Sequence record: MW584180.1
Length of the DNA stretch: 64,000 nucleotides
From: Mycobacterium phage prophiGD15-1
Reading direction: 5' to 3' (one strand)
Part shown: positions 2,218-64,000 of the stretch, in pieces
Layout: every line of letters starts with the position of its first letter
Numbering within the stretch: position 1 is the stretch's first letter
Position numbers and translations under genes: made by a program
The notes under the pieces: generated by a model
What the model saw: only the letters and a program-made list of their open reading frames with translations
Databases searched by the model: none
Told to the model about the DNA's origin: nothing

Positions 2218-2291
2218 ATTCTACGACTTGGGCAGTATTCTGCGTGCCCATCTGAGAATCGGCCAGGACCATTCATATCTGCATACTTCAA

Positions 2292-2564
2292 CTATCCCGC
2301 CGACTTCGCCTGAGCCTCTAAGTAGTAGGTCAGGATGGCGCGTAGGTCAGCTGAATTACCTCCTGCCGCTGCGCGGGCAATTGCCGCACGCTGCGGTTCT
2401 GCGCACCAGTTCGCGTATTCCATAGCCATCTTCCATGTCGGGAAGATGGACCCGCCGGTAATGCAACCCACTTTGGGCAAGTAATGTTTCACGACCCAAG
2501 GGAATCTGGGATGGGGCTTGTGAGATACCGTCCATCGCTCTGTGTCGCCGTAGCAATCAGTCAT
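2292..2564 (-). CDS. Hypothetical 90-aa protein. Its start is fused to junction repeat F.
   Basis: ORF with GAGG SD inside the conserved junction element. No recognisable domain. Confidence 0.45.
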   Translation of the reverse strand: MTDCYGDTERWTVSHKPHPRFPWVVKHYLPKVGCITGGSIFPTWKMAMEYANWCAEPQRAAIARAAAGGNSADLRAILTYYLEAQAKSAG

Positions 2565-2605
2565 CCCTCAATTATCCGCCGTTTCAACCGAAGTCGCGGT
2601 GTCTA
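2562..2605 (-). repeat. Gene-junction repeat, copy F (minus strand): TAGACACCGCGA-N17-GATAATTGAGG-g-ATG. It links the acyltransferase stop codon to the start of the 90-aa gene.
   Basis: The reverse complement of 2562-2605 reads ctagacaccgcgacttcggttgaaacggcggataattgagggatg. It matches the five plus-strand copies at 19014, 23616, 24224, 24771 and 25083. Confidence 0.8.
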
Positions 2606-3843: not shown

Positions 3844-4572
3844 ATGCATGCTGCCCTCATCATCTTCACTATCACCACCATCGCATGGTCGCTGTGGGTA
3901 CGAAGACTCACGTGGCAATGCAAAATGGAAGTTGCCGCAAGCATTAACCTCGTTTTGCAGGCCGGGGCCGTGGTCTTAATGAGCCCGTGGGCATCCGAGG
4001 TGGTCGGCCTACGCCTGTACAGCCTGACGGGCCAGCACAACCTAGAGGACTTACTGGGCCACGACTTATATGTGATCGCTGCGAGCTCGGTGGTTTACCA
4101 CCTCATTTTGAGGCTCGATCAGCGCCAGATGGCTATCCGGTTTAAGACTCATGTCGAGCTGCCTGCGACGATATGCCTGCCCTTGATGTACGCCACGTTC
4201 ACCGCTGGCGCCGGTACTGAAATCTATCGGCGTGACTTTTTCCGGGTGCCGTGCGACTTCTGGCTGGCGTCCTACTGGTTCATCATGTGCGGCACCACCG
4301 CCTACCTGCTCGTCTACAGCGTTCTAGCACTGGTGCCCATGCTGCAAGCGCACGCCCGTCTCGCCCGCCTGTACCTCGTCGCCAGTGGGGCTGGAATAGG
4401 GGCTTGCGCGGCCCGGCTAGTCACCGCAGTGCTGCCCGATCACCTTCAGGACACGTTCACGGCTTCGATCATCGTGTGGTTTCTAGCCTGCTCATGTGGG
4501 GCGGCCTTCGCCCTCATCTCTGGCTATTCCTGGCTTCAGCGGCAGCGGGCCCTCATAGGGGCGGCCCCTTAG
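3844..4572 (+). CDS. Integral membrane protein of unknown function, ~6 TM helices.
   Basis: Hydrophobic segments run throughout the ORF. It is transcribed divergently from the acyltransferase operon and converges on the repressor gene. Confidence 0.55.
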   Translation: MHAALIIFTITTIAWSLWVRRLTWQCKMEVAASINLVLQAGAVVLMSPWASEVVGLRLYSLTGQHNLEDLLGHDLYVIAASSVVYHLILRLDQRQMAIRFKTHVELPATICLPLMYATFTAGAGTEIYRRDFFRVPCDFWLASYWFIMCGTTAYLLVYSVLALVPMLQAHARLARLYLVASGAGIGACAARLVTAVLPDHLQDTFTASIIVWFLACSCGAAFALISGYSWLQRQRALIGAAP

Positions 4573-4993
4573 GGTCATAGGCGTCACGATGAGGGAAAGA
4601 ACCGCCACCCATTCGCCGCTGGACCTCCGCGAGCAGTTCCATGTCGCTCGCATCACGGATGGACCCCGCTGTGCCGATTGGAGTGGGGGAACCGCCCGTG
4701 AGGATGTCGATAGCCGAACCTGGTTCCCATCGCAGTGCCGCGTCGAGCATGCGGAGAGTGGAGCCACGGGGGCGAGGCTTAGTCCCGTCGTTGTTTTCAA
4801 TGCGGGACTGAATCACATCCGACGGGCCGCCCGCCTCCTGCACCTCCGCCTGGCTCAACTTCAGTTCCTCACGCCGGGCACGAACCATTCGCCCGAGCCT
4901 CCCCCACTGCTCGCCTGTGGCCTTCGTCGCCTCCGTCATGCCCATAATCATCCGGAAAATATTCGGCAAACACAACCCGCGTTGGGCTAACAA
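4553..4993 (-). CDS. Putative immunity repressor (HTH XRE-family). The true start is probably an internal Met near 4939-4951.
   Basis: HTH segment RARREELKLSQAEVQEAGGPSDVIQSRIENN. Leftward gene, divergent from a cro-like HTH gene across a ~100-bp intergenic region. Confidence 0.55.
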   Translation of the reverse strand: MLAQRGLCLPNIFRMIMGMTEATKATGEQWGRLGRMVRARREELKLSQAEVQEAGGPSDVIQSRIENNDGTKPRPRGSTLRMLDAALRWEPGSAIDILTGGSPTPIGTAGSIRDASDMELLAEVQRRMGGGSFPHRDAYDPKGPPL

Positions 4994-5093
4994 CCGGCAT
5001 GTAATTCACGGCTTCACCTGCCAGAACCGGACTATTCGCACTGGTCTACAACATTTCCCGAACAAAGCCTTGTAATGCCCAGATATTTGCCGT
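4994..5093. promoter_or_regulatory. Divergent promoter/operator region of the immunity switch (repressor leftward, cro-like rightward).
   Basis: Non-coding gap between divergent HTH genes. It contains the partial palindrome cgtatgTTGGgacacatgCCAAcgg. Confidence 0.35.
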
Positions 5094-5426
5094 ATGTTGG
5101 GACACATGCCAACGGGTGCCAAACTCTCACAAGCCAGGGGTGATGACCGCCCGCTGCGGACCCCACCCCACGTGCCCATCGGCGCTCTACGTCTGGTCGC
5201 AGATATCACCCTCGATGAGCTCGCGGTAGGGATCGCCGAGATCTTGACCGTGAAGCAAGGGCGCGAGGCGACACCCCCGAGTCGAGGAACACTGTCCGCC
5301 ATTGAGTCCGGGCGGCGCGGCGCATCGGCAGAGCTCCTGTCTGCCATCGAGGAGTTCTTCCAACTGCCCGCCGGAACGATCACAACTACTTACCGCCCGC
5401 GCCCCAAGGCGCGATTCGCCGCTTAA
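5094..5426 (+). CDS. Cro-like HTH XRE-family regulator.
   Basis: HTH segment ITLDELAVGIAEILTVKQGREATPPSRGTLSAIESGRR. First rightward gene after the switch region. Confidence 0.5.
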   Translation: MLGHMPTGAKLSQARGDDRPLRTPPHVPIGALRLVADITLDELAVGIAEILTVKQGREATPPSRGTLSAIESGRRGASAELLSAIEEFFQLPAGTITTTYRPRPKARFAA

Positions 5427-11540: not shown

Positions 11541-12038
11541 GTGAGTGAGACGGCTAGAGCGGCGGTTGCTTATCTTGCCGCACTGAACGTGTTGGGCAAG
11601 GCCGCGCCGGCCGCGAAAGAAGCAGTGAAGGCTGAGCTTGTCCAGGGCGACGGACTGGCCGGGTTTATTGACGGACACAAGGTCGGCACCGCCACATGGG
11701 TCACCTCGAACCGTGTCGCCACAGTCGCCGACGAAGCGGGATTTGTGCAGTGGGTCAAAGACCACTGCGGCGAAACCGAAATCGTTGAGGTTGTGCGCGA
11801 AGCGTTCCGCAAGCACCTGTTAGTCAATGCCCTTGAGCAGGACGGCCAAGTGTGGCTGCGCGGCGAGGTATGCCCTTATGTGGTGTTCGAACAACTCAAA
11901 GAGCCCTACGTGAAGATCACCCCCACTAAGGATGCCGCCGAGATCGTGTCAAACGCACTCGCCAGTGGGCGGCTATCGCTTGACGGAACCGTGAAAGCCC
12001 TGGAATCCAACATTATTGATGCGGAGGTTGAATCATGA
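11541..12038 (+). CDS. Hypothetical protein immediately upstream of the ERF gene. Possibly Gam-like/Gp157-like.
   Basis: 165 aa. Weak pattern similarity to Mu Gam (…WVTSNRVATV…FVQWVKDH…). Synteny with the annealing protein. Confidence 0.3.
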   Translation: MSETARAAVAYLAALNVLGKAAPAAKEAVKAELVQGDGLAGFIDGHKVGTATWVTSNRVATVADEAGFVQWVKDHCGETEIVEVVREAFRKHLLVNALEQDGQVWLRGEVCPYVVFEQLKEPYVKITPTKDAAEIVSNALASGRLSLDGTVKALESNIIDAEVES

Positions 12039-12673
12039 CCACCATCTACCAAGCGCTATCCGAGGTGATGAAGGATGTCGGAGCCGTCCGCAAGGGTGAG
12101 CGGAACCAGCAGCAAGGCTTCTCATTCCGCGGGATCGATGCAGTCACATCGGCGGTGTATCCAGCTCTCACGAAGCACGGCGTGATCGTTGTACCGAAGG
12201 TCTTGGACTACGAGTACGGGACTGTTGAGGTGGGCCGCAACCGCACCCTCATGGGGCATGCACGGCTGACAGTAGAGTTCACCTGGTATGGACCAGATGG
12301 TGACTCGATCACCTCTGTCGCCGCAGCAGAGTCAATGGATGCCGGCGACAAAGCTACCGCTAAAGCGCACTCAGTGGCTTTCCGTACTGCAATGCTACAA
12401 ACCCTCTGCCTACCAACGGATGAGCCGGACCCAGACTCACAGGTGTATGAGAGGTCATCGGCACCCCCAGAGCGCACCGACGTAGACGACGCACTCGACG
12501 AGCTCGCCGCGGCCTGCACCGAGAACGGGTGGGACCAACGTGAGACCGCAGGGAAGTTCTTCTCTGAGCATGGCAAGCCCCCGCGGCAGTGCACCGCAGA
12601 TGTGATCCGCAAGTTCATTGGCGATTTGATCAAGCCTCACCCCGCGGAGCGAGCGGAGGCCGCTAGTGCCTAG
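12035..12673 (+). CDS. ERF-family single-strand annealing protein (phage recombinase).
   Basis: N-terminal IYQALSEVMKDVGAVRKGERNQQQGFSFRGIDAVTSAVYPALTKHGVIV matches the ERF signature (ALxxxQxE…K…N…Y.Y..L..V…L..HG). Confidence 0.55.
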   Translation: MTTIYQALSEVMKDVGAVRKGERNQQQGFSFRGIDAVTSAVYPALTKHGVIVVPKVLDYEYGTVEVGRNRTLMGHARLTVEFTWYGPDGDSITSVAAAESMDAGDKATAKAHSVAFRTAMLQTLCLPTDEPDPDSQVYERSSAPPERTDVDDALDELAAACTENGWDQRETAGKFFSEHGKPPRQCTADVIRKFIGDLIKPHPAERAEAASA

Positions 12674-18702: not shown

Positions 18703-19016
18703 TGCCGCACTCAAGCCCTACCGACTGGATAGCCGGTGGAAGTGTCGCCGCAGACATCGTTGGATGCCTCACCGGTCTGGTCGCGGACCTGTCCTGGCAG
18801 GATAAAGCGGCGTGCCGTGGACTCCCTACGGAGTGGTGGTTCCCGGACCAAGGCGGCAGCCGGGAATGTAAGCGGGCCAAGGAAATCTGCCACGGCTGCC
18901 CAGTCAAACTCCAATGCCTCCAATTCGCGATAGAGGTACACGACCAGCACGGAATTTACGGGGAGCTGTCATTGAAGGACAGGCGCAGGTGGAACCAGGA
19001 AAGGAAAGCGGGCTAG
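18702..19016 (+). CDS. whiB: Second WhiB-family regulator, a paralog in tandem.
   Basis: CRGLPTEWWFP…CKRAKEICHGCPVKLQCL…GIYGE. Confidence 0.7.
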   Translation: MPHSSPTDWIAGGSVAADIVGCLTGLVADLSWQDKAACRGLPTEWWFPDQGGSRECKRAKEICHGCPVKLQCLQFAIEVHDQHGIYGELSLKDRRRWNQERKAG

Positions 19017-19057
19017 ACACCGCGAATGTCAGTGTATCGGAGGATAATTGAGGTATG
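19014..19057 (+). repeat. Gene-junction repeat, copy A.
   Basis: TAGACACCGCGAatgtcagtgtatcggagGATAATTGAGGTATG. Confidence 0.8.
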
Positions 19058-21721: not shown

Positions 21722-21982
21722 GTGAAACTGATGAACGTATGGATAGTCTCTGCGCATCGGTCCTGGGGCGACAGGATTGAATACCACGGACACAGGGGGG
21801 ATACCCACCGCTGGATGGGCTGGACGCGACCCATACCCAAGGTGGGGGAAGTTATTGAAACTGAATTGAAGTCCGGACGGGCGGCCCGCTTTCGGATAGT
21901 TGAGGTTGAGCGCGGGTACGGCACGGATGATATGTGGTGGGCCACAACCTCGGACGCGCCCATTTATGGAGCGACGACGTAA
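21722..21982 (+). CDS. Hypothetical protein.
   Basis: ORF with GGGAG SD. Confidence 0.4.
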   Translation: MKLMNVWIVSAHRSWGDRIEYHGHRGDTHRWMGWTRPIPKVGEVIETELKSGRAARFRIVEVERGYGTDDMWWATTSDAPIYGATT

Positions 21983-22028: not shown

Positions 22029-22361
22029 GTGACCGACGAAAAGCCTCTCCGCTGGATAGGTACCTCACTTGAGGACCTACGGGACTTCCCCGAAGCGGCA
22101 CGGCAGGACGCCGGTTACCAACTGGATAGGGTTCAGCACGGCCTAGAGCCCCACGACTGGAAGCCAATGCCAACAGTCGGCAAGGGCTGCCGCGAGATAC
22201 GCGTACGCACCGAAGACGGCGCGTACCGTGTGTTCTACGTAGCCACCCTTGGGGATGTGGTGTTCGTACTGCACAGCTTCGTCAAGAAGTCACAGAAGAC
22301 TTCCCAGCAAGACATCAACACCGGTAAGGCTCGATACAAGAAAGCGCAGGAGGAACTATGA
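22029..22361 (+). CDS. RelE/ParE-superfamily toxin of the HigB / phage Gp49-like (DUF891) type.
   Basis: LEDLRDFPEAARQDAGYQLDRVQHG…GKGCREIRVRTEDGAYRVFYVATLGDVVFVLHSFVKKSQKTSQQDINTGKARYK matches the Gp49-like/HigB pattern. Confidence 0.6.
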   Translation: MTDEKPLRWIGTSLEDLRDFPEAARQDAGYQLDRVQHGLEPHDWKPMPTVGKGCREIRVRTEDGAYRVFYVATLGDVVFVLHSFVKKSQKTSQQDINTGKARYKKAQEEL

Positions 22362-22609
22362 GCGTATGGGACGACATCGCCGACACCCCGCGCGAAGCGG
22401 AGAACCTTCGCGTGCGGTCTGAGCTGATGATGGCAATCGAAAAGAAGATCAACGAGCGCGAATGGACCCAGGTCCAGGCCGCCGAAGCACTCGGACTGAC
22501 CCAGCCTCGGGTGTCGGATCTGCTGCGCGGCAAGATCTCCAAGTTCTCCTTGGATGCTCTCGTGGACATCGCTTCCGGGTTGGATGTGCACGTGAAGGTG
22601 TGCGTCTGA
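22358..22609 (+). CDS. HTH XRE-family antitoxin (HigA-like), downstream of and overlapping the toxin gene.
   Basis: WTQVQAAEALGLTQPRVSDLLRGKISKFSLDALVDIA. The toxin-then-antitoxin order is typical of higBA. Confidence 0.6.
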   Translation: MSVWDDIADTPREAENLRVRSELMMAIEKKINEREWTQVQAAEALGLTQPRVSDLLRGKISKFSLDALVDIASGLDVHVKVCV

Positions 22610-23349: not shown

Positions 23350-23618
23350 CCGGCGCCATGGCCCCTCCACTCGTGGCCATGTGTGAGCGCATCGCGGATA
23401 AGAAGATCCCTGACGACACCGTGCCGAAGTTCATGGACGGCCTGCTGGATATCGCCCGCGACGGCGTTGACCGCGCCGTGAGTGTGGTGCAGACGTCCGC
23501 TGACGGTATTGCCGGTAGCGCGGAAGCTGAACTAGGTCAGCTCGGCTCGGAGATTAGGGGAGTGGTCAAAGCGGCCAACCCCATAGATATTCTCGGCAGC
23601 CTGTTCGGGCGACGCTAG
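23322..23618 (+). CDS. Hypothetical protein.
   Basis: ORF. Its stop codon is the TAG of junction repeat B. Confidence 0.4.
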   Translation: MLDRFFAALAGAMAPPLVAMCERIADKKIPDDTVPKFMDGLLDIARDGVDRAVSVVQTSADGIAGSAEAELGQLGSEIRGVVKAANPIDILGSLFGRR

Positions 23619-23659
23619 ACACCGCTGATGTCGCTGCACCGCAGTAAAATTGAGGTATG
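23616..23659 (+). repeat. Gene-junction repeat, copy B.
   Basis: TAGACACCGCTGAtgtcgctgcaccgcagTAAAATTGAGGTATG. Confidence 0.8.
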
Positions 23660-23833
23660 AGCATTGAGACCGAGCGGCAGTTGAATCGCCGCTGCATTGA
23701 GCTGCAAGACGAGATAATCCGCTGGGGCGAGAAGGCGCAGTGGGCGCTTGAGCAAGATGACACCGGATGGTGGGGCGATGTCCTCGGTGGCATCGTCAAG
23801 CGCGGCAAGCTGATGGCAGAGAAGGGCACCTAA
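23657..23833 (+). CDS. Hypothetical 58-aa protein.
   Basis: Start lies in the junction repeat. Confidence 0.4.
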   Translation: MSIETERQLNRRCIELQDEIIRWGEKAQWALEQDDTGWWGDVLGGIVKRGKLMAEKGT

Positions 23834-23980
23834 CGATGTGCCCTCCACGCTGTCAGAACTGCATCCATCCGCAGCATGACCACGAAGGCTGGTTTGGTCG
23901 CTGCACCCGCGACGACTGCGAATGTAAGGCAATGCAGGACTGACTTGCCCCTACAGCCTCTCCGTTCTACTATCGAACAC

Positions 23981-24226
23981 ATGTTCGACAAGGTGTCATA
24001 CCGTATCGAAGGTGATGGACCCGTCACAGCGGTACTCACTTACCAAAACCGGGAGTACCGGCACACCTCCCGAACCATGTGGCTCGGACACGAAGACGGC
24101 ATGCCCCAAGGCTCCATCCAACTCGACGAGCATGTGTGGGCGCGGCTACAGCGCATCAACGGAACCATAGAAGCCACCATCACCGACTCTAAGACTGGTG
24201 AAAGCTACACCCTCACACCTGAATAG
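23981..24226 (+). CDS. Hypothetical protein. The ORF track's longer form starts at 23876.
   Basis: Its stop is the TAG of junction repeat C. A 35-aa Cys-rich ORF (23836-23943) may also be a gene. Confidence 0.3.
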   Translation: MFDKVSYRIEGDGPVTAVLTYQNREYRHTSRTMWLGHEDGMPQGSIQLDEHVWARLQRINGTIEATITDSKTGESYTLTPE

Positions 24227-24267
24227 ACACCGCGACTTACGCTGTAGCTCGGTAAAATTGAGGTATG
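24224..24267 (+). repeat. Gene-junction repeat, copy C.
   Basis: TAGACACCGCGActtacgctgtagctcggTAAAATTGAGGTATG. Confidence 0.8.
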
Positions 24268-24501
24268 GATGATCCCGAGATTGAAGTCGCTGAGGCGGTG
24301 TGTAAACGGCACAACTGGGACGGCATGATGTTTTGCGCTTGCACTGCCGCTGCTCGTGAAGCTTTGAAGCGAGTGGGCGCCGATCTGCAATCCGTCGATG
24401 GCGTCTTAGGTCTGCTTCATCATCGAGGGCTTGTTGACTCCGAGCGCAATAGAGCTGATGTGAAAGCTGCCCTCGAAATCGTACAGAGGTACACCCGATG
24501 A
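24265..24501 (+). CDS. Hypothetical protein.
   Basis: Start lies in the junction repeat. Confidence 0.4.
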   Translation: MDDPEIEVAEAVCKRHNWDGMMFCACTAAAREALKRVGADLQSVDGVLGLLHHRGLVDSERNRADVKAALEIVQRYTR

Positions 24502-24773
24502 CTGAACCATCTCAAGCCCATATAGACCGGGCACGTGAACTCGGCCTCTCTTTCGATCCTTCTGATACATCGGATGAAGAGTTAAGCCGTGCTATCGCAA
24601 CGTATGAGCGGGTTTACATCGAGGCGATGACCGAGAATGCTGGTAGGGACACTGATACTCCTACTGAGCGCCGCAAGATGCTGGGCGTATGGACTCAGCG
24701 CGATGAAGAAGAGGCCAAGGAAGCCGCTGAACGGCGGCGGATGTTCGGCTCCCGACGAATCCCACCCGCCTAG
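24498..24773 (+). CDS. Hypothetical protein.
   Basis: Stop is the TAG of repeat D. Confidence 0.4.
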   Translation: MTEPSQAHIDRARELGLSFDPSDTSDEELSRAIATYERVYIEAMTENAGRDTDTPTERRKMLGVWTQRDEEEAKEAAERRRMFGSRRIPPA

Positions 24774-24815
24774 ACACCGCTGATTCCTCTGAAACGTCGG
24801 ATAATTGAAGGTATG
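24771..24815 (+). repeat. Gene-junction repeat, copy D.
   Basis: TAGACACCGCTGAttcctctgaaacgtcgGATAATTGAAGGTATG. Confidence 0.8.
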
Positions 24816-25085
24816 GACATCACCGAGAAGCCATTGACCAACCTGGCTGACACAATACATACAGCCCTGATCGGACACAGGCCGGACGACTACGCCTGCT
24901 ACTACAAGCAGCTTTTCAATGTGTTTGGAGCGCCCGGCATCCCGAACACCTACGAGGCGGTACTCAAGCGTTACGGCAGGGTAATCCATCGAGAGACATT
25001 CTGGCGGCGCAAGAGCGCAGAGAAGCAATGCATCGCATGGAAGCGCTTGTATGACGCCGTCGTACTACCACCTCCACAGTCCTAG
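24813..25085 (+). CDS. Hypothetical protein.
   Basis: Flanked by repeats D and E. Confidence 0.4.
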   Translation: MDITEKPLTNLADTIHTALIGHRPDDYACYYKQLFNVFGAPGIPNTYEAVLKRYGRVIHRETFWRRKSAEKQCIAWKRLYDAVVLPPPQS

Positions 25086-25126
25086 ACACCGCTGATCCCG
25101 TTGAAACGCGGGATAATTGAGGTATG
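25083..25126 (+). repeat. Gene-junction repeat, copy E.
   Basis: TAGACACCGCTGAtcccgttgaaacgcggGATAATTGAGGTATG. Confidence 0.8.
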
Positions 25127-25291
25127 AACGACGAATTGAGCTTCCTGCTTGAGGCGTCGCCGGAAGAGTGGGATACCTTCATTGGATGCCCACATACAGG
25201 CAAGTCCTACACGGAAGTGGGACGGCTAACCGGCGAGGTGTTCACGCGCTGCTGCGACTGTCACACGGCTTTGCCTAATCTCCCGTCCTAG
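25124..25291 (+). CDS. Hypothetical 55-aa Cys/His-containing protein.
   Basis: Start lies in repeat E. Confidence 0.35.
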   Translation: MNDELSFLLEASPEEWDTFIGCPHTGKSYTEVGRLTGEVFTRCCDCHTALPNLPS

Positions 25292-25565
25292 CTGAATCCC
25301 TTTGGGAGGTAATCATGCTTGATGGTCAACCGTTGGGCGAGTACCCGGAACTGGGGCCGACGCACACCGCCGAGTATTTCGAGCTCCTAACACTGGCCTA
25401 CTTAGCCAGGCTCATGGGTTACCACATCTAGTGCCATGCCCCTCACTGCTAACCAGCTCCGCATCCTAGAGGCGTTGCAGCGGTTACGTATAGCCCGTAC
25501 TGAGGGCGATGTTGACGCCGAGCTCGTGGCCTACAGCCGCATGGATGAGCTACTGGATCGTGAAC

Positions 25566-25847
25566 CTAGGGGCATAGGTTCCGTTTCGCCGATCGCGCCA
25601 TAGCCAACAGATTGGCTGGTGTCGCGTTCGGATAGTTGGAGTGCGAGGCGACCTGCTCGGGGGTTTCCCCGTTGCGCAAGTCATTGCACATGCCGTTCCC
25701 GGCGGCCAGTAGGAACGGCCGGGACTGCCACATCACTTGAAAACCCTGCCCGGACAGTTCGTCCAGGTAGGCGTCATCGTCCGCGTACGCCGCGGGCGCG
25801 AAAACAATGCTGGCCGCTACGGCGGCTGCAGCTGCGATCTTGATCAT
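25566..25847 (-). CDS. Secreted DUF732-like protein (signal peptide), on the opposite strand to its neighbours.
   Basis: MIKIAAAAAVAASIVFAPAAYA, then DDAYLDEL…GMCNDLRNGETPEQVA…LCP. Leftward gene in a rightward operon, typical of a moron. Confidence 0.5.
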   Translation of the reverse strand: MIKIAAAAAVAASIVFAPAAYADDDAYLDELSGQGFQVMWQSRPFLLAAGNGMCNDLRNGETPEQVASHSNYPNATPANLLAMARSAKRNLCP

Positions 25848-25976
25848 TGGCGGATCGTAGACCTCCACCCCGACGGGTACAGGCGAAACGGGAGATCAGA
25901 TGGCCGTGCAGCACTGCGAGTACTGCGGCCGCCGCCTCCGGTACGACTGCTGCCCGCACTGTGAAGAGGGTGAGTA

Positions 25977-43832: not shown

Positions 43833-44942
43833 ATGGCTCTGTCTAACCCTTGGATCCACGGCCCGGAAACCGGCGAAGACTTCACACAGCTCCCGCCGCA
43901 CCTGCAAGGCGTGGAAACGAAGATCGTCTACATCGGCGTCGTGCATCCGATCCACAAGAAGCGGTTCACCTGGAACCTCTTGGGTTCACACAAGGGCCGC
44001 GAGGGCATTGTGATGGCGCCCGTCGCCACCGGGTTGTTCCACACCCCGTTCGAAACTCTCATGTCCGAGGGCCCGTACCAGATCGGTGCCGAACCAGAGC
44101 GCACCGACTGGAAGAAGCGCATGATTTCCATCGGCGTTCACGTGAATCCCGATATCGCCCCCTGGATAAGCGGCAGTAGTAGCAGGGTCATTGACACCCC
44201 GTTCCGGTATCGGATGATTGAGGAACGCTGGTGGGGTTCATGGTCGGCCACCGAAGACGGCTACCTGGGAGTGTTTACCCGCACCCATGGGTGGCGGTGG
44301 CTGCGGGTCAGGCTCGCTGAAGAGCCCAAAGACCCGTGGGAACTCGACCCGGTGGCATTCGGCAACAACTTCATGACCTGGAGCATGAACATCGTTGCCA
44401 CGCAGCCCTATTTCGCTAAGCGAACCGAGTTCAAGACGTGGCAGAACGATGTCGAAACCTCCACCCTGTGGGACAAGATTGAGGACCTGCTCAACGAGTT
44501 CATTCCCGGGCTGGATGTGGGTGAAGGCGCCATTCGTGTGCCGAACCGCGGAGACATCGCCGTCTACCCGAAGTTCTTGGTGTCCTCGCCAGGCAAATGC
44601 TGGATTCAAGAGGGTGACCGGTGGGTCCAGCTGCCGCTACTGAGCCCGCAAGACGGCTACGTGATGGTAGATACCGACCCGAACGCGCAAACACTCACCG
44701 CAACAACAGATCCAGTGGACCCGCTGTTCATGCGGATCCTGCGAAACTCTCAACTCCTAGATGTCCTTCTGCATGACCTGCTTTCCATCACCCTGCCGGT
44801 GTGGAGGCGTATGGAGGACCGATTCACCGAAGCATCCAAGATCCCGCCACGCACGCTCGCGGCGGTCAAGGTGCGCCACTCCAACGCTGACGGGCGGGTC
44901 ACCATGTTTGTTCCCCAACGCTATTCGAAGGGCTTCGCGTAG
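43833..44942 (+). CDS. Minor tail protein (distal tail-like).
   Basis: Synteny after the tape measure. Confidence 0.5.
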   Translation: MALSNPWIHGPETGEDFTQLPPHLQGVETKIVYIGVVHPIHKKRFTWNLLGSHKGREGIVMAPVATGLFHTPFETLMSEGPYQIGAEPERTDWKKRMISIGVHVNPDIAPWISGSSSRVIDTPFRYRMIEERWWGSWSATEDGYLGVFTRTHGWRWLRVRLAEEPKDPWELDPVAFGNNFMTWSMNIVATQPYFAKRTEFKTWQNDVETSTLWDKIEDLLNEFIPGLDVGEGAIRVPNRGDIAVYPKFLVSSPGKCWIQEGDRWVQLPLLSPQDGYVMVDTDPNAQTLTATTDPVDPLFMRILRNSQLLDVLLHDLLSITLPVWRRMEDRFTEASKIPPRTLAAVKVRHSNADGRVTMFVPQRYSKGFA

Positions 44943-62216: not shown

Positions 62217-63253
62217 ATAGATTCGAGGCCGTCAACCCGCTCGATGATCGCCGCCAGCCCACCACCACCTTGGAGGGCTGGCGGCGTTTCGTTGAGGCCG
62301 ATCCACCCGAGTTCACGCTCCTGGACGATACGCAGTGGCGCAGTCTGGATGTGCGGGACCGGATGCTCTACGACGAGGCCCGAATCGCCCATCACTCCGA
62401 ACTGGTCGTGGTCACCACGTCGGCGATCGCCCGGATCAACAACGAAGGCCGGCTGCTGACCCTGCTCAATCAGTGCGAGATCGGAGCCCGCCGCGGTTTG
62501 ATCATTTCCGGGGATGCGGCCACCGGGAAGACCACGGCCATCAAACAGATGGGCCGCACCCATGAACTGCGGGTGCGGGGACGCCTGACCTACGACGCCA
62601 CGTACGACGCCGTCGCGGGCCGTATCCCGGTGGTATACGTGACGGCCCCGCCCAAGGGCTCACCACGCAAACTGGCGATGGAATTCGCCCGTTTCCTGGG
62701 GCTGCCGATGACTATGAACGCCCGTGCGAACGTCACCGACATCGCCGACGCGGTCTGCCAAGTCCTCATCGATGCCCGCACCGACATCGTGGTTGTCGAC
62801 GAGATCCACAACCTGAACCTGGAAACCCGCGCCGGAGAAGACCTCTCGGATCATCTCAAATATTTCACCGAACACCTGCCCGCTACGTTCATCTACGCCG
62901 GCATCGACGTCGAACGTTCCGGGGTATTCACAGGTACCCGCGGAAAACAACTCGCTGGACGCTGCGGAGTTATCCACACCCAGGCCTTCCCCTACAACGA
63001 GGAATGGATCTCGCTGGTGGCAGGGATGGAGAACACGTTGCGACTGCACCACCACGAACCCGGAACCCTTGTCGCCGACGCCAAATACTTGCATCGGCGC
63101 ACCAACGGCATGATCGGCTCGCTGGCGCACCTGATCCGCTCAGCAGCTATCCGTTCCATCATCGACGAGACCGAAGCCGTCACCCGGGCACTGATGGATG
63201 CCACCCTGCTCGACTACGCCGCGCAAAGCGCTGCGGCCCGAACCGCCAGCTGA
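62204..63253 (+). CDS. tnsC: TnsC-like AAA+ ATPase.
   Basis: Walker A GDAATGKTTAI and Walker B IVVVDEIHNL. Overlaps the tnsB stop. Confidence 0.75.
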   Translation: MATVNRFEAVNPLDDRRQPTTTLEGWRRFVEADPPEFTLLDDTQWRSLDVRDRMLYDEARIAHHSELVVVTTSAIARINNEGRLLTLLNQCEIGARRGLIISGDAATGKTTAIKQMGRTHELRVRGRLTYDATYDAVAGRIPVVYVTAPPKGSPRKLAMEFARFLGLPMTMNARANVTDIADAVCQVLIDARTDIVVVDEIHNLNLETRAGEDLSDHLKYFTEHLPATFIYAGIDVERSGVFTGTRGKQLAGRCGVIHTQAFPYNEEWISLVAGMENTLRLHHHEPGTLVADAKYLHRRTNGMIGSLAHLIRSAAIRSIIDETEAVTRALMDATLLDYAAQSAAARTAS

Positions 63254-64000
63254 TGAACACCGCCACCGCCGCAGGACGCGCCTGGCCGGCCGGGCCGCGT
63301 CAACGCTTACCACGTGTAGTGACCCCATTCCGCACCGAGACAGTGAGTTCGTATATCGACCGGCTAGCCCACGCCAACCACCTCACCCGAGGCCGGTTGC
63401 AGTACCACGTCGCCGCAGGCACCTACCAGACCCGCGCCGACTGGCTCGCCGTCGCCACCGGAATCGCCGAAAACATCCTGCGCGAACGGCTCATTGGGTT
63501 CGGAGCGGCCAACGGCACCAACGCCAAACAACAAGCCCGGGTACGGCCCGCCTGCCGGCTGTGCATGGCCCGTCGCGGTGTCTACGAGCCCGTCCACTGC
63601 TGGCTGCCCGCGTACGAAACTGTATGTTTTCGCCACTTACGCTGGATCGGCCCCGGCGCGGCCACCTGGGAAGACCAACACGACCTGAGCAATCACCCCG
63701 ATATCGTGGTCGCCGCCCGCCGCCACCGCCAGCTGATCCGAGCCCACCGCGACCTCGCCGGCAGCGCCTTGTCCGAGGCCCGCCACATCCTGACCTGGTG
63801 GTCCCGGGTCAACCAAGACAGCGGCGACGACCAGACAGACCCGACCACGTATCTGCAGGCCTACCCAGACCTGATCACGATCGCTACCGTGCTGGCCGAT
63901 CACCGCCACCAAGTCGCCGCCGGTCCCTGCACCAGGCATCCGATCTGGTCTGAGCACCTGCTGGGTTTGATCAACACACACGCAACCACCATCCGCGACG
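63254..64000 (+). CDS. tniQ: TniQ/TnsD-family target-selection protein (partial, continues past the window).
   Basis: Frame-2 translation from ATG 63254: MNTATAAGRAWPAGPRQRLPRVVTPFRTETVSSYIDRLAHANHLT…CRLCMARRGVYEPVHCWLPAYETVCFRHLRW (TniQ N-terminal zinc-finger fold). Start overlaps the tnsC stop (ATGA). Confidence 0.65.

Follow-up and report, generated by a model that had tools for sequence, protein, structure and literature searches.

The region between 23.6 and 25.3 kb of the Mycobacterium phage prophiGD15-1 (sequence record MW584180.1) contains a series of very small genes separated by a short repeated sequence, which raises the question of what this repeat does, that is, whether it is a translational junction, a recombination site or a promoter. 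The preliminary description of the 64,000-nt stretch that was analyzed (hereinafter, the window) read the repeat as a stop/start junction and likened the locus either to an integron-like cassette array lacking an integrase or to a hotspot of moron acquisition. The explanation that accounts best for the observations presented here, and that we consider probable, is that the copies of the repeat are compact leaderless-promoter cassettes that are active in the lysogen and also serve as exchange points between phages of the MabA group. Promoter function and expression in the lysogen are asserted with high confidence given that published experimental data match the sequence to the nucleotide.

The window consists of the entire prophage (61,797 bp) and approximately 2.2 kb of host DNA. 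The prophage belongs to cluster MabA1 as defined in the analysis of the Mycobacteroides abscessus mobilome, where prophiATCC19977-1 is reported as a 61,797 bp element at positions 1754373-1816169 of the genome and where MabA1 prophages like prophiGD17-2 are found in many catalogued clinical isolates (PMC8092301). The segment 23300-25700 is 100% identical, at the same coordinates, in prophiGD17-2 (MW584161), which is equivalent to prophiATCC19977-1, and in ten other M. abscessus prophages or phages. The array is located in the rightward early-lytic region, with the lysogenically expressed toxin-antitoxin genes 54/55 on the left and glycosyltransferase genes on the right; the toxin-antitoxin pair is the only MabA1 item reported in the mobilome study as expressed in the lysogen (PMC8092301). 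A literature search with the motif string and with MAB_1766-1771 yielded no paper describing either.

Transcription start sites (TSS) were taken from a portion of Dataset S1 of a differential RNA sequencing study of strain ATCC 19977 in log phase, and expression levels, namely RNA-seq and ribosome profiling (Ribo-seq) values in reads per kilobase per million mapped reads (RPKM) along with peptide counts, from Dataset S2 of the same study (Miranda-CasoLuengo et al., 2016; PMC4974804). Coordinates in the ATCC 19977 genome equal the window position plus 1754372, a conversion that was checked against the promoter strings printed in Dataset S1.

A 44-nt element from stop codon to start codon

In hand-made and MAFFT alignments, the element, read from the TAG stop codon of the upstream gene to the ATG start codon of the downstream gene, consists of the 5' box TAGACACCGC, exactly 19 variable nucleotides, a hexamer of the form (G/T)A(T/A)AAT, the sequence TGAGGT and the ATG; among the copies, the 3' part deviates once to TGAAGGT and once to TGAGGG. 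A repeat search of the 22-27 kb region identified a single four-copy family (23607-23653, 24215-24261, 24762-24808 and 25074-25120). For the 3' box TAAWATTGARGTATG, 4 sites match where 0.06 would be expected; for the 5' box, with no more than one mismatch allowed, the corresponding numbers are 13 and 3.7. When the whole window was scanned with a position-weight matrix, exactly six full copies emerged, here denoted E1 to E6, with scores of 48-62 bits; the best of all other sites reaches -8.6 bits (Table 1). The junction repeat is real and exceeds chance by far. The preliminary description had recognized the repeat but counted five junctions between 23616 and 25300, where there are four copies (E1-E4) out of the six in the window; its fifth junction was probably the one at 23942-23983 or the one at 25289-25317. 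Its statement that a stop and a start lie within each repeat holds for all six copies: in every case the upstream annotated gene terminates at the TAG and the downstream one begins at the ATG. The copy E6 is found in the leftward-transcribed arm, beside attL and the integrase gene, and the spacer of E4 contains a 6-7 bp inverted repeat, ATCCCG..CGGGAT.

Several other sites resemble parts of the element. An exact occurrence of the 10-mer at 63575 lies in host DNA with no 3' box behind it and is due to chance. A half copy at 2282-2296 (minus strand) consists of the 3' box only, and its ATG opens merely a 3-codon open reading frame (ORF). Sites similar to the 3' box are present at 21895-21905 (plus strand; GATAGTTGAGG), upstream of the toxin-antitoxin module, and at 44213-44223 (plus strand), within the structural region, as TTGACA-16 nt-GATGATTGAGG. 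The junction at 23942-23983 was considered as another copy and rejected because it occurs once per genome and does not score as a copy; it is retained in relatives whose upstream genes are unrelated. In layout it is reminiscent of a canonical leaderless promoter, and the RNA-seq signal increases across it from 46 to 90 RPKM; the portion of Dataset S1 used here contains no TSS for this junction. The junction at 25289-25317 is of the ordinary Shine-Dalgarno (SD) type and likewise does not score as a copy.

Transcription starts on the start codon

In the portion of Dataset S1 used here, a TSS is mapped to the A of the ATG at each of the six copies, 6-7 nt past the -10-like hexamer and with a 5' untranslated region (5'UTR) of 0 nt; four of these six TSSs are listed as primary. 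The 52-nt promoter strings given in these rows are identical to the sequence of the window, their last letters being "..GGTAT" or "..GGGAT". The greatest TSS depths in these rows are those of E1 and E2, both of which contain TAAAAT, a perfect match to TANNNT. The GAGG motif is located 1-2 nt before the ATG and hence upstream of the TSS. This short distance, in conjunction with the presence of the hexamer 6-7 nt from the ATG, argues against a ribosome-binding site (RBS) junction. Because the TSSs in these rows fall on the ATG codons of the copies, the repeat is neither an RBS junction nor an attC site but a cassette that carries the promoter of a leaderless mRNA. In the same portion of the dataset, one identical primary promoter string (TCGGGGCACCAACC...) recurs in many minus-strand rows with multiple TSSs, evidently through a spreadsheet error; the string for the minus-strand copy E6, which is in the secondary-TSS column, is correct.

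Under the proposed mechanism, the host RNA polymerase would take the (T/G)A(A/T)AAT hexamer as the -10 element and initiate 6-7 nt downstream, on the A of the ATG, so that the small downstream ORF would be translated without a 5'UTR or an SD sequence, and the GAGG before the ATG would be promoter (discriminator) DNA rather than an RBS. The cassettes are active in the repressed prophage, and the 23.6-25.3 kb region represents four tandem moron-type units embedded in a silent early-lytic region, with two further units behind the WhiB gene and in the attL-proximal arm. The 5' box spans positions -41 to -32 (the TSS being position 42 of the element), and the TAG inside it is the stop codon of the upstream gene. 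In place of a -35 element, this box probably offers a contact to RNA polymerase or to an activator; the invariant 19-nt spacing argues that the contact is made jointly with the -10 element, either by the polymerase or by an activator positioned over the -35 region.

Expression of the array in the lysogen

MAB_1766-1770 of the array are expressed in the lysogen at 46-94 RPKM and MAB_1771 at 12 RPKM, compared to 0.4-1.8 RPKM for the flanking genes: the array is bordered by the nearly silent MAB_1764/1765 upstream (1.8/0.9 RPKM) and MAB_1774 downstream (0.4 RPKM). By comparison, the same dataset gives 59 RPKM for dnaA and 84 RPKM for dnaN. The MAB_4998c gene that follows E6 reaches 54 RPKM in RNA-seq and 52 RPKM in Ribo-seq, and across E5 (19014) the RNA-seq signal steps from 2.1 to 13.9 RPKM. 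Because the neighboring lytic genes are silent, the expression of the array is not due to spontaneous induction. With their own promoters and with expression in the lysogen from within a silent operon, the four tandem independent units therefore fit the definition of morons, so that the hotspot of moron acquisition proposed in the preliminary description is supported. This reading can now be sharpened, the data supporting the view that the repeat is a standardized leaderless-promoter cassette. In the differential-expression supplement of PMC4974804, MAB_1760, 1763, 1767 and 1769 (within window 18.9-25.3 kb) show log2 fold changes of +1.2 to +2.7, probably in the sheet for artificial sputum.

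Geometry and distribution among relatives

An exact-pattern scan of IMG/VR, with a spacer of 18-21 nt, identified at least 97 stretches from at least 43 viral contigs, and loci from MabA relatives were re-scanned with relaxed boxes and a permitted spacer of 17-21 nt; the counts in this section refer to the matches listed. All contigs with the element are mosaic relatives of the prophage. The spacer is exactly 19 nt long in 188 of the 189 instances from the relaxed re-scan. Alignment of 74 unique 41-nt cores reveals conservation beyond the boxes used in the search, at T14, T20, G21, C25 and G29. Among 94 unique 46-nt elements, the hexamer is GATAAT in 61, TAAAAT in 26 and TAGAAT in 5, of which the latter two fit TANNNT and the first has a G in the first position. 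The gap between the hexamer and the start codon, examined in 91 unique elements, is 6 nt in 76 and 7 nt in 15, and the start codon is ATG in 88. In 129 of 173 instances, the frame closed by the TAG is open for 40 codons or more, and an ATG or GTG is present at position 42 or 43 in 182 of 188. The first slot of GD102-1 contains a diverged copy (TAGACCCCGT, 19 nt, AATAAT, GGGTGA, ATG), so the element counts are lower bounds.

In a search of 50,697 phage records, the element was detected in the 16 MabA records only, and the species-representative genomes yielded six single matches with wrong spacing in unrelated metagenome-assembled genomes, which is the chance level. Judging by these sequence searches, the element is confined to the MabA phage group. 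Some annotated genes of relatives begin or end inside the element, namely gene 72 at 4639-4848 of locus L003 and gene 67 at 4534-4650 of locus L002: one start is a TTG in the spacer, and one 38-aa call ends at the TGA of ATTGAGG. Given the geometry of the mapped TSSs, both annotations are probably wrong.

Swapped genes at the edges of the element

The locus is not invariant among relatives. Comparison of the 22-27.3 kb region using blastn with GD102-1 (MabA1), GD02-2 (MabA2), GD91-2 (MabA3) and CCUG48898T-2 shows islands of homology bounded at the edges of the element, with endpoints in the four relatives at 24224 (three times), 24267, 24815/24816, 25081/25082, 25126 and 23614-23625; several of the matches consist of the element alone. 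At the slot of E2, in five genomes, a 44-nt island joins two unrelated upstream alleles and four unrelated downstream alleles in varied combinations, and in the alignment identity ceases exactly at the TAG and just past the ATG. In at least 43 related contigs, the element is retained whereas the genes on both sides are swapped.

Across all instances among the matches listed, the element is followed by 60 protein families and preceded by 16. The gp59-like and WhiB anchors each precede 10-11 different families, nine families are found behind two or three different anchors, and the downstream ORFs encode 17-170 aa with a median of 78 (again among the matches listed). For example, the homolog of gene 60, which in this prophage follows gene 59, is located behind WhiB in other genomes, and one family of 73-80 aa proteins occupies the attL-arm slot, the WhiB slot and a more distal position in an expanded WhiB array. 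In these cases the spacer subtype depends on the slot rather than on the gene, and the joint is therefore in the 3' box. Of the homology endpoints, taken from high-scoring segment pairs no shorter than 120 nt, 21% are located 8 nt or less from an element, against 3% expected from its length, and there are approximately 22 breakpoints per element compared to approximately 10 per ordinary gene junction, that is, about a twofold difference.

Two observations point to exchange between copies. In the cleaner of the two, one locus (L088) has the order WhiB tail, element, gene X, whereas another (L025) has the WhiB tail, the element, a gp60-like gene with another ORF, an identical element and gene X; the two differ by a 406-bp indel of one repeat-plus-cassette unit that is bounded by two identical 44-nt direct repeats. 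In addition, GD02-2 carries a chimeric element with the flanks of E3 and the spacer of E4. Enzymes of the ERF class anneal single strands and recombine short and diverged homologies. Gene 27 of the prophage encodes a single-strand-annealing recombinase of this family (Pfam PF04404, 78.8 bits). The 44-nt elements, which flank many unrelated genes in all phages of cluster MabA, may provide the short homologies for insertion, deletion and exchange of units that each consist of a promoter and an ORF, plausibly through the action of the phage ERF recombinase. The comparative evidence somewhat favors a role of the element as such a recombination linker. In prophiGD91-2 (MabA3), gene 59 (L005, 2376-2867), located directly upstream of the gp59-like anchor, encodes an HNH endonuclease; a link between this enzyme and cassette turnover is pure speculation.

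Alternative explanations

Several observations weigh against the explanation favored here. The element has no canonical -35 at 16-18 nt, the TAGACA, which is similar to a -35 hexamer, being 23 nt from the -10, and the region upstream of it is G+C-rich coding sequence; a sigma-70 consensus promoter scan of 22.5-26.1 kb found zero promoter-like sites. A scan for T-run terminators found terminator-like sites at the chance level and none following the units. The immunity-repressor control region (the repressor/cro intergenic region, window 4950-5130) does not contain the 5' box, so the repressor is no obvious candidate for a reader of the box; the possibility that the box is an immunity operator was rejected because nothing similar is present in that region. 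The mini-proteins have no meaningful match in Pfam, PADLOC, NCBIfam or a PDB fold search, and the PHROG matches are to families of unknown function only. The TSS and expression data come from one study of one strain in log-phase culture, and neither the instance counts nor the counts of homology endpoints are independent, the former for phylogenetic reasons. With regard to exchange, a systematic search with strict flanks for clean one-unit indels gave no second case, breakpoints are also common at other gene junctions and inside gene 63 (24637), and spacer subtypes are slot-specific across genomes, so homogenization is rare.

Two readings fare worst. A translation-level junction, in which the GAGG of a polycistronic mRNA would couple stop to start as an RBS, in a manner similar to the start-associated sequences (SAS) of Cluster K phages or to termination-reinitiation, would account for a unit that spans exactly stop to start, for the complementarity of GAGG(T) to the 3' end of 16S rRNA and for the strong ATG bias shared with Cluster K SAS. 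The GAGG is, however, too near the ATG for an SD sequence, and the SAS consensus is absent; the primary transcripts listed in the portion of Dataset S1 used here start on the ATG and so do not contain the GAGG, which largely refutes this reading, and we give it very little credence. The stop/start junction proposed in the preliminary description is abandoned on the same grounds. The repeats could instead be sites for a tyrosine recombinase in an integron-like system, given that direct repeats bound small unrelated ORFs and that the prophage encodes a tyrosine integrase. That integrase (179-1429), however, is of the attP/tRNA-Met type, is encoded 22 kb away and scores only 18.8 bits against TIGR02249 (cut-off 265); the repeat is a fixed, asymmetric 44-nt unit without an attC-like structure, copies are present on both arms in both orientations, and each cassette has its own promoter. 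We therefore practically dismiss the integron-like array, which had also been suggested at the outset: there is neither an attC hairpin nor an integron integrase, and each repeat is a mapped promoter. A composite terminator-promoter, in which a spacer hairpin after the upstream stop would terminate or stabilize the upstream transcript and insulate the units as in the T4-like cassettes discussed below, is improbable although less so. Some copies contain a clean 6-9 bp stem (e.g., ATCCCG..CGGGAT) that overlaps the -10, with a minimum free energy (MFE) of about -10 kcal/mol and z-scores down to -4.6, and a few compensatory changes are observed at pairs 17-28, 18-27 and 19-26. Against a general role, paired cells amount to 65% versus 58.5% in shuffles, the mean MFE z-score is -0.97, RNAalifold finds no consensus structure in the element, the strongest promoters, E1 and E2, have weak stems with no T-run after them, and RNA-seq stays at 46-94 RPKM across the array. 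Accordingly, covariation, RNAalifold and MFE z-scores led us to reject a hairpin or attC-like structure as the defining feature, and a terminator role may apply to some copies, not to the element in general.

The remaining alternatives accept the promoter and concern what is added to it. The asymmetric 5' box could be an operator for a phage or host protein, akin to a stoperator or an activator site, that co-regulates all units, a suggestion that would supplement promoter function rather than supplant it and that we regard as possible but on balance not the expected outcome. Its near-invariance in 74 unique copies among the matches listed, its fixed distance of 19 nt from the -10, its center near -36, which is the class II activator position, and the lowest TSS depth in the portion of Dataset S1 used here being that of the half copy that has no 5' box (143.5) all speak for it. 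Against it stand the lack of a similar sequence in the immunity control region, the contribution of the search pattern itself to the conservation of the 10-mer, the lack of any candidate protein and the fact that the box-less copy is a single case. A more frugal view is that the repeat is conserved simply as a good promoter and that the joints at its edges reflect random illegitimate recombination followed by selection for intact genes, the usual model of mosaicism in actinobacteriophages. The breakpoint frequencies at ordinary junctions and within gene 63, the slot-specific spacer subtypes conserved across genomes and the single clean indel are all in accord with this view. It is nevertheless rather unlikely in our assessment because that indel lies between two identical 44-nt copies, as homologous exchange predicts, one gene family is found in three slots and is joined at the ATG to the spacer typical of each slot, the element of GD02-2 is chimeric, and in several genomes homology ceases to the nucleotide at the TAG and the ATG. 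In the opposite direction, a bolder and equally doubtful extension is that the 44-nt element is the linker of an integrase-free cassette system: units of a leaderless promoter and an ORFan would be excised, circularized and re-inserted at any copy by the ERF-type recombinase, the three slots would hold exchangeable libraries of lysogen-expressed accessory, defense or counter-defense genes, and the 5' box would be read by a dedicated co-regulating factor. If true, such a linker system would be a mechanism similar to that of the T4-like cassettes operating in prophages of a human pathogen.

Genes of the array and neighboring features

The ORFs between the copies have 58, 35 (unannotated), 81, 78, 91, 90 and 55 codons (Table 1). 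Their mutual unrelatedness, noted in the preliminary description, is upheld by PHROG and blastp searches: each ORF belongs to its own PHROG family or to none, and the four that directly follow an element fall into four blastp families. The upper bound of the lengths given there (55-116 codons) is not, as it derives from an over-extended start of gene 61. The GenBank start of gene 61 at 23876 (116 aa) was rejected in favor of 23981 (81 aa) given that phrog_37605 covers residues 1-81 of 81 and RefSeq MAB_1767 extends over 1778353-1778598. The 35-codon Cys-rich ORF, which has no family match in Pfam and PHROG searches and is predicted to be coding from its sequence, ends where the conserved island 23942-23983 begins and is overlapped by the GenBank version of gene 61.

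The gene 62 product, gp62, has 7 homologs among 5.8 billion proteins, and the only one with a named source comes from Mycobacteroides abscessus. Its AlphaFold2 model is a three-helix hairpin with a predicted local distance difference test (pLDDT) score of 80 and no PDB match at an E-value below 1.9; judging by this model, the 'helix-turn-helix' label in some GenBank records is unsupported, the fold being a generic helical hairpin without a significant PDB neighbor. The model of gp64, with pLDDT of 47, is unusable. The mini-proteins are expressed in lysogeny and differ between strains; they are likely to be accessory factors that act on the host or on other phages. By analogy with other prophage-expressed genes of mycobacteriophages, host modulation or defense and counter-defense would be their most likely roles.

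Other leaderless genes are expressed near the array. The toxin-antitoxin genes 54/55 (22029-22609, plus strand) have a TSS on the G of GTG 22029 with a depth of 978 in the portion of Dataset S1 used here, and show very high ribosome occupancy (1177 and 1658 RPKM). For gene 68/MAB_1773c (25566-25868, minus strand), the same portion gives a leaderless TSS at 25847, with the -10 TACGAT followed after 6 nt by ATG. The true start of this gene is therefore ATG 25847, which yields a 94-aa protein with a signal peptide-like N-terminus (MIKIAAAAAVAASIVFAPAAYADD...); the phage record places the start at GTG 25868. In the lysogen, the gene is at 34 RPKM in RNA-seq and 90 RPKM in Ribo-seq.

Table 1. Copies of the element, genes of the array and related features in the window. 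TSSs are from the portion of Dataset S1 used here and are given as ATCC 19977 coordinate = window position; they lie on the strand of the feature.
Feature	Position	Strand	TSS	TSS depth	Description
E1	23616..23659	+	1778029 = 23657	1887.5	TAG is the stop of gene 59; TAAAAT 23645-23650; TGAGGT; ATG of gene 60 (MAB_1766); 5'UTR 0; 53.7 bits
E2	24224..24267	+	1778637 = 24265	1808	TAG is the stop of gene 61; TAAAAT 24253-24258; ATG of gene 62 (MAB_1768); 5'UTR 0; 61.6 bits
E3	24771..24815	+	1779185 = 24813	508	45 nt, one extra A; TAG is the stop of gene 63; GATAAT 24800-24805; ATG of gene 64 (MAB_1770); 5'UTR 0; 54.4 bits
E4	25083..25126	+	1779496 = 25124	266	TAG is the stop of gene 64; GATAAT 25112-25117; ATG of gene 65 (MAB_1771); 5'UTR 0; 62.3 bits
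E5	19014..19057	+	1773427 = 19055	165.5	TAG is the stop of WhiB gene 45; GATAAT 19043-19048; ATG of gene 46 (MAB_1757, DUF7448); 5'UTR 0; 48.2 bits
E6	2562..2605	-	1756936 = 2564	497	TAG is the stop of acyltransferase gene 4; GATAAT 2576-2571; ATG of gene 3 (90 aa); TSS assigned to the new Ribo-seq-supported ORF MAB_4998c; 60.1 bits
Half copy	2282..2296	-	1756656 = 2284	143.5	GATAGT-TGAAGT-ATG; overlaps the stop of gene 3; no 5' box; TSS secondary, on the A of ATG
Other junction	23942..23983	+			TTGCCC, 17 nt, TACTAT, 7 nt, ATG (23981); no SD; promoter-like
Gene 60, MAB_1766	23657..23833	+			58 aa; first in the E1 transcript; phrog_34558 (unknown function); 46 RPKM RNA-seq, 28 Ribo-seq, 0 peptides (Dataset S2)
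35-codon Cys-rich ORF	23836..23943	+			MCPPRCQNCIHPQHDHEGWFGRCTRDDCECKAMQD (MCPPRCQNC...CECKAMQD); unannotated; 2 nt past the stop of gene 60
Gene 61, MAB_1767	23981..24226	+			81 aa, corrected start; 90 RPKM RNA-seq, 20 Ribo-seq, 3 peptides
Gene 62, MAB_1768	24265..24501	+			78 aa; first in the E2 transcript; 75 RPKM RNA-seq, 21 Ribo-seq, 4 peptides
Gene 63, MAB_1769	24498..24773	+			91 aa; ATGA overlap with gene 62, translationally coupled, normal SD; 94 RPKM RNA-seq, 20 Ribo-seq, 2 peptides
Gene 64, MAB_1770	24813..25085	+			90 aa; sole gene between E3 and E4; 81 RPKM RNA-seq, 47 Ribo-seq, 1 peptide
Gene 65, MAB_1771	25124..25291	+			55 aa; first in the E4 transcript; 12 RPKM RNA-seq, 2 Ribo-seq, 0 peptides
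Gene 27, ERF-family recombinase	12035..12673	+			Single-strand-annealing recombinase; Pfam PF04404

Significance

The element explains how a block of small ORFans is produced in lysogens of the prophage of the M. abscessus type strain, and provides a simple sequence rule by which genes of this kind can be located and their correct starts assigned; in the MabA group, several GenBank starts look misplaced relative to the element or to a mapped TSS. The genes of the array are prime candidates for prophage-mediated defense or for an influence on host physiology, a point of relevance to phage therapy of M. abscessus. In terms of mosaicism, a defined 44-nt linker at many joints, along with at least one indel between identical copies, makes homologous exchange testable. 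Finally, the element is a compact, portable leaderless promoter whose natural variants cover an approximately tenfold range of TSS read depth, and as such could serve mycobacterial genetics.

Comparison with known systems

Repeated sequences at gene junctions are known in several phage and bacterial systems that resemble the MabA element to different degrees. Stoperators match the immunity operator and silence transcription in the lysogen. Like these sites, the 5' box of the MabA element is short, asymmetric and conserved, is found in short intergenic spaces, has one orientation relative to transcription and is often located at gene junctions; unlike them, it is absent from the immunity region and belongs to promoters that are active in the lysogen. 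The stoperators considered here are those of Cluster A, namely the gp71 sites of phage L5 (Brown et al., 1997, as cited in PMC3203893). The likeness to integron attC sites consists in an array of small unrelated ORFs that are split by a recurring sequence and vary in content among relatives; integron cassettes are promoterless and served by the common promoter Pc, whereas the MabA cassettes have their own promoters, IntI and attC structures are missing, and any exchange would be homologous.

Leaderless-mRNA promoters of mycobacteria, reportedly described by Cortes and colleagues in 2013 and by Shell and colleagues in 2015, share with the element a TANNNT-type -10, a distance of 6-7 nt to a TSS on ATG or GTG, the absence of an SD and the frequent association with small proteins. 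Ordinary promoters of this kind, in contrast, do not occur as a repeated 44-nt unit in which an upstream 10-mer is invariant and the spacing fixed. The moron concept is said to go back to work by Juhala, Hendrix and co-workers in 2000. The MabA units resemble morons in being independent, in having their own promoter, in their location between phage genes, in being expressed from the prophage and in their variable presence among relatives; classical morons are individually different, whereas the MabA units share one promoter cassette, are arranged in tandem and are not followed by T-run terminators.

The closest analogs of the element are the extended start-associated sequences (ESAS) of Cluster K phages and the promoter early stem-loop (PeSL) cassettes of T4-like phages; PeSL comes closest overall, and ESAS and SAS are nearest among mycobacteriophages. 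The ESAS are now thought to contain a promoter together with imperfect inverted repeats (Pope et al., 2011, PMC3203893; Adephagia study, PMC11373665). The similarity to SAS and ESAS is functional only: these sequences, too, are repeated in a single orientation, are found before only part of the non-structural genes, remain conserved from subcluster to subcluster although the families behind them differ, and favor ATG starts. The SAS consensus GGGATAGGAGCCC, at up to two mismatches and 3-9 nt before starts, has one match in the window, at 62477, outside the prophage, against 1.9 expected. The SAS lies 3-9 nt before the start with a usable SD, whereas the TSS of the MabA element is the start codon itself; the ESAS has paired imperfect 17-bp inverted repeats, compared to a spacer of 19 nt in total with a stem of at most 6-9 bp in some MabA copies; and the ESAS promoter is putative, whereas the MabA TSSs are mapped.

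The PeSL cassette combines the stop codon of the upstream gene, an early promoter, a stem-loop between or over the promoter boxes, and the SD and start of a downstream ORFan, and recombination between PeSL copies mediates indels, replacements and the formation of mini-circles (Arbiol et al., 2010, PMC2839356; Comeau et al., 2014, PMC4122927). The MabA element differs in that it is unrelated in sequence, belongs to temperate phages of an actinobacterial host, is present in about 6 copies per genome compared to about 50 for PeSL, and lacks the sigma-70 consensus -35 and the AT-rich upstream region, in place of which it has the invariant box 23 nt from the -10. Furthermore, the MabA promoters are active in the lysogen and not just early in infection, the transcripts are leaderless with the SD unused, and the stem-loop is inconsistent. 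In most respects the architecture is similar: both are short repeated intergenic cassettes that open with the stop codon of one gene, enclose a promoter and close with the start codon of the next gene; in some copies of both, a stem-loop is located over the -10 or between it and the upstream box; and both precede small ORFans in the most variable regions of the genomes, at the points of indels and replacements between relatives.

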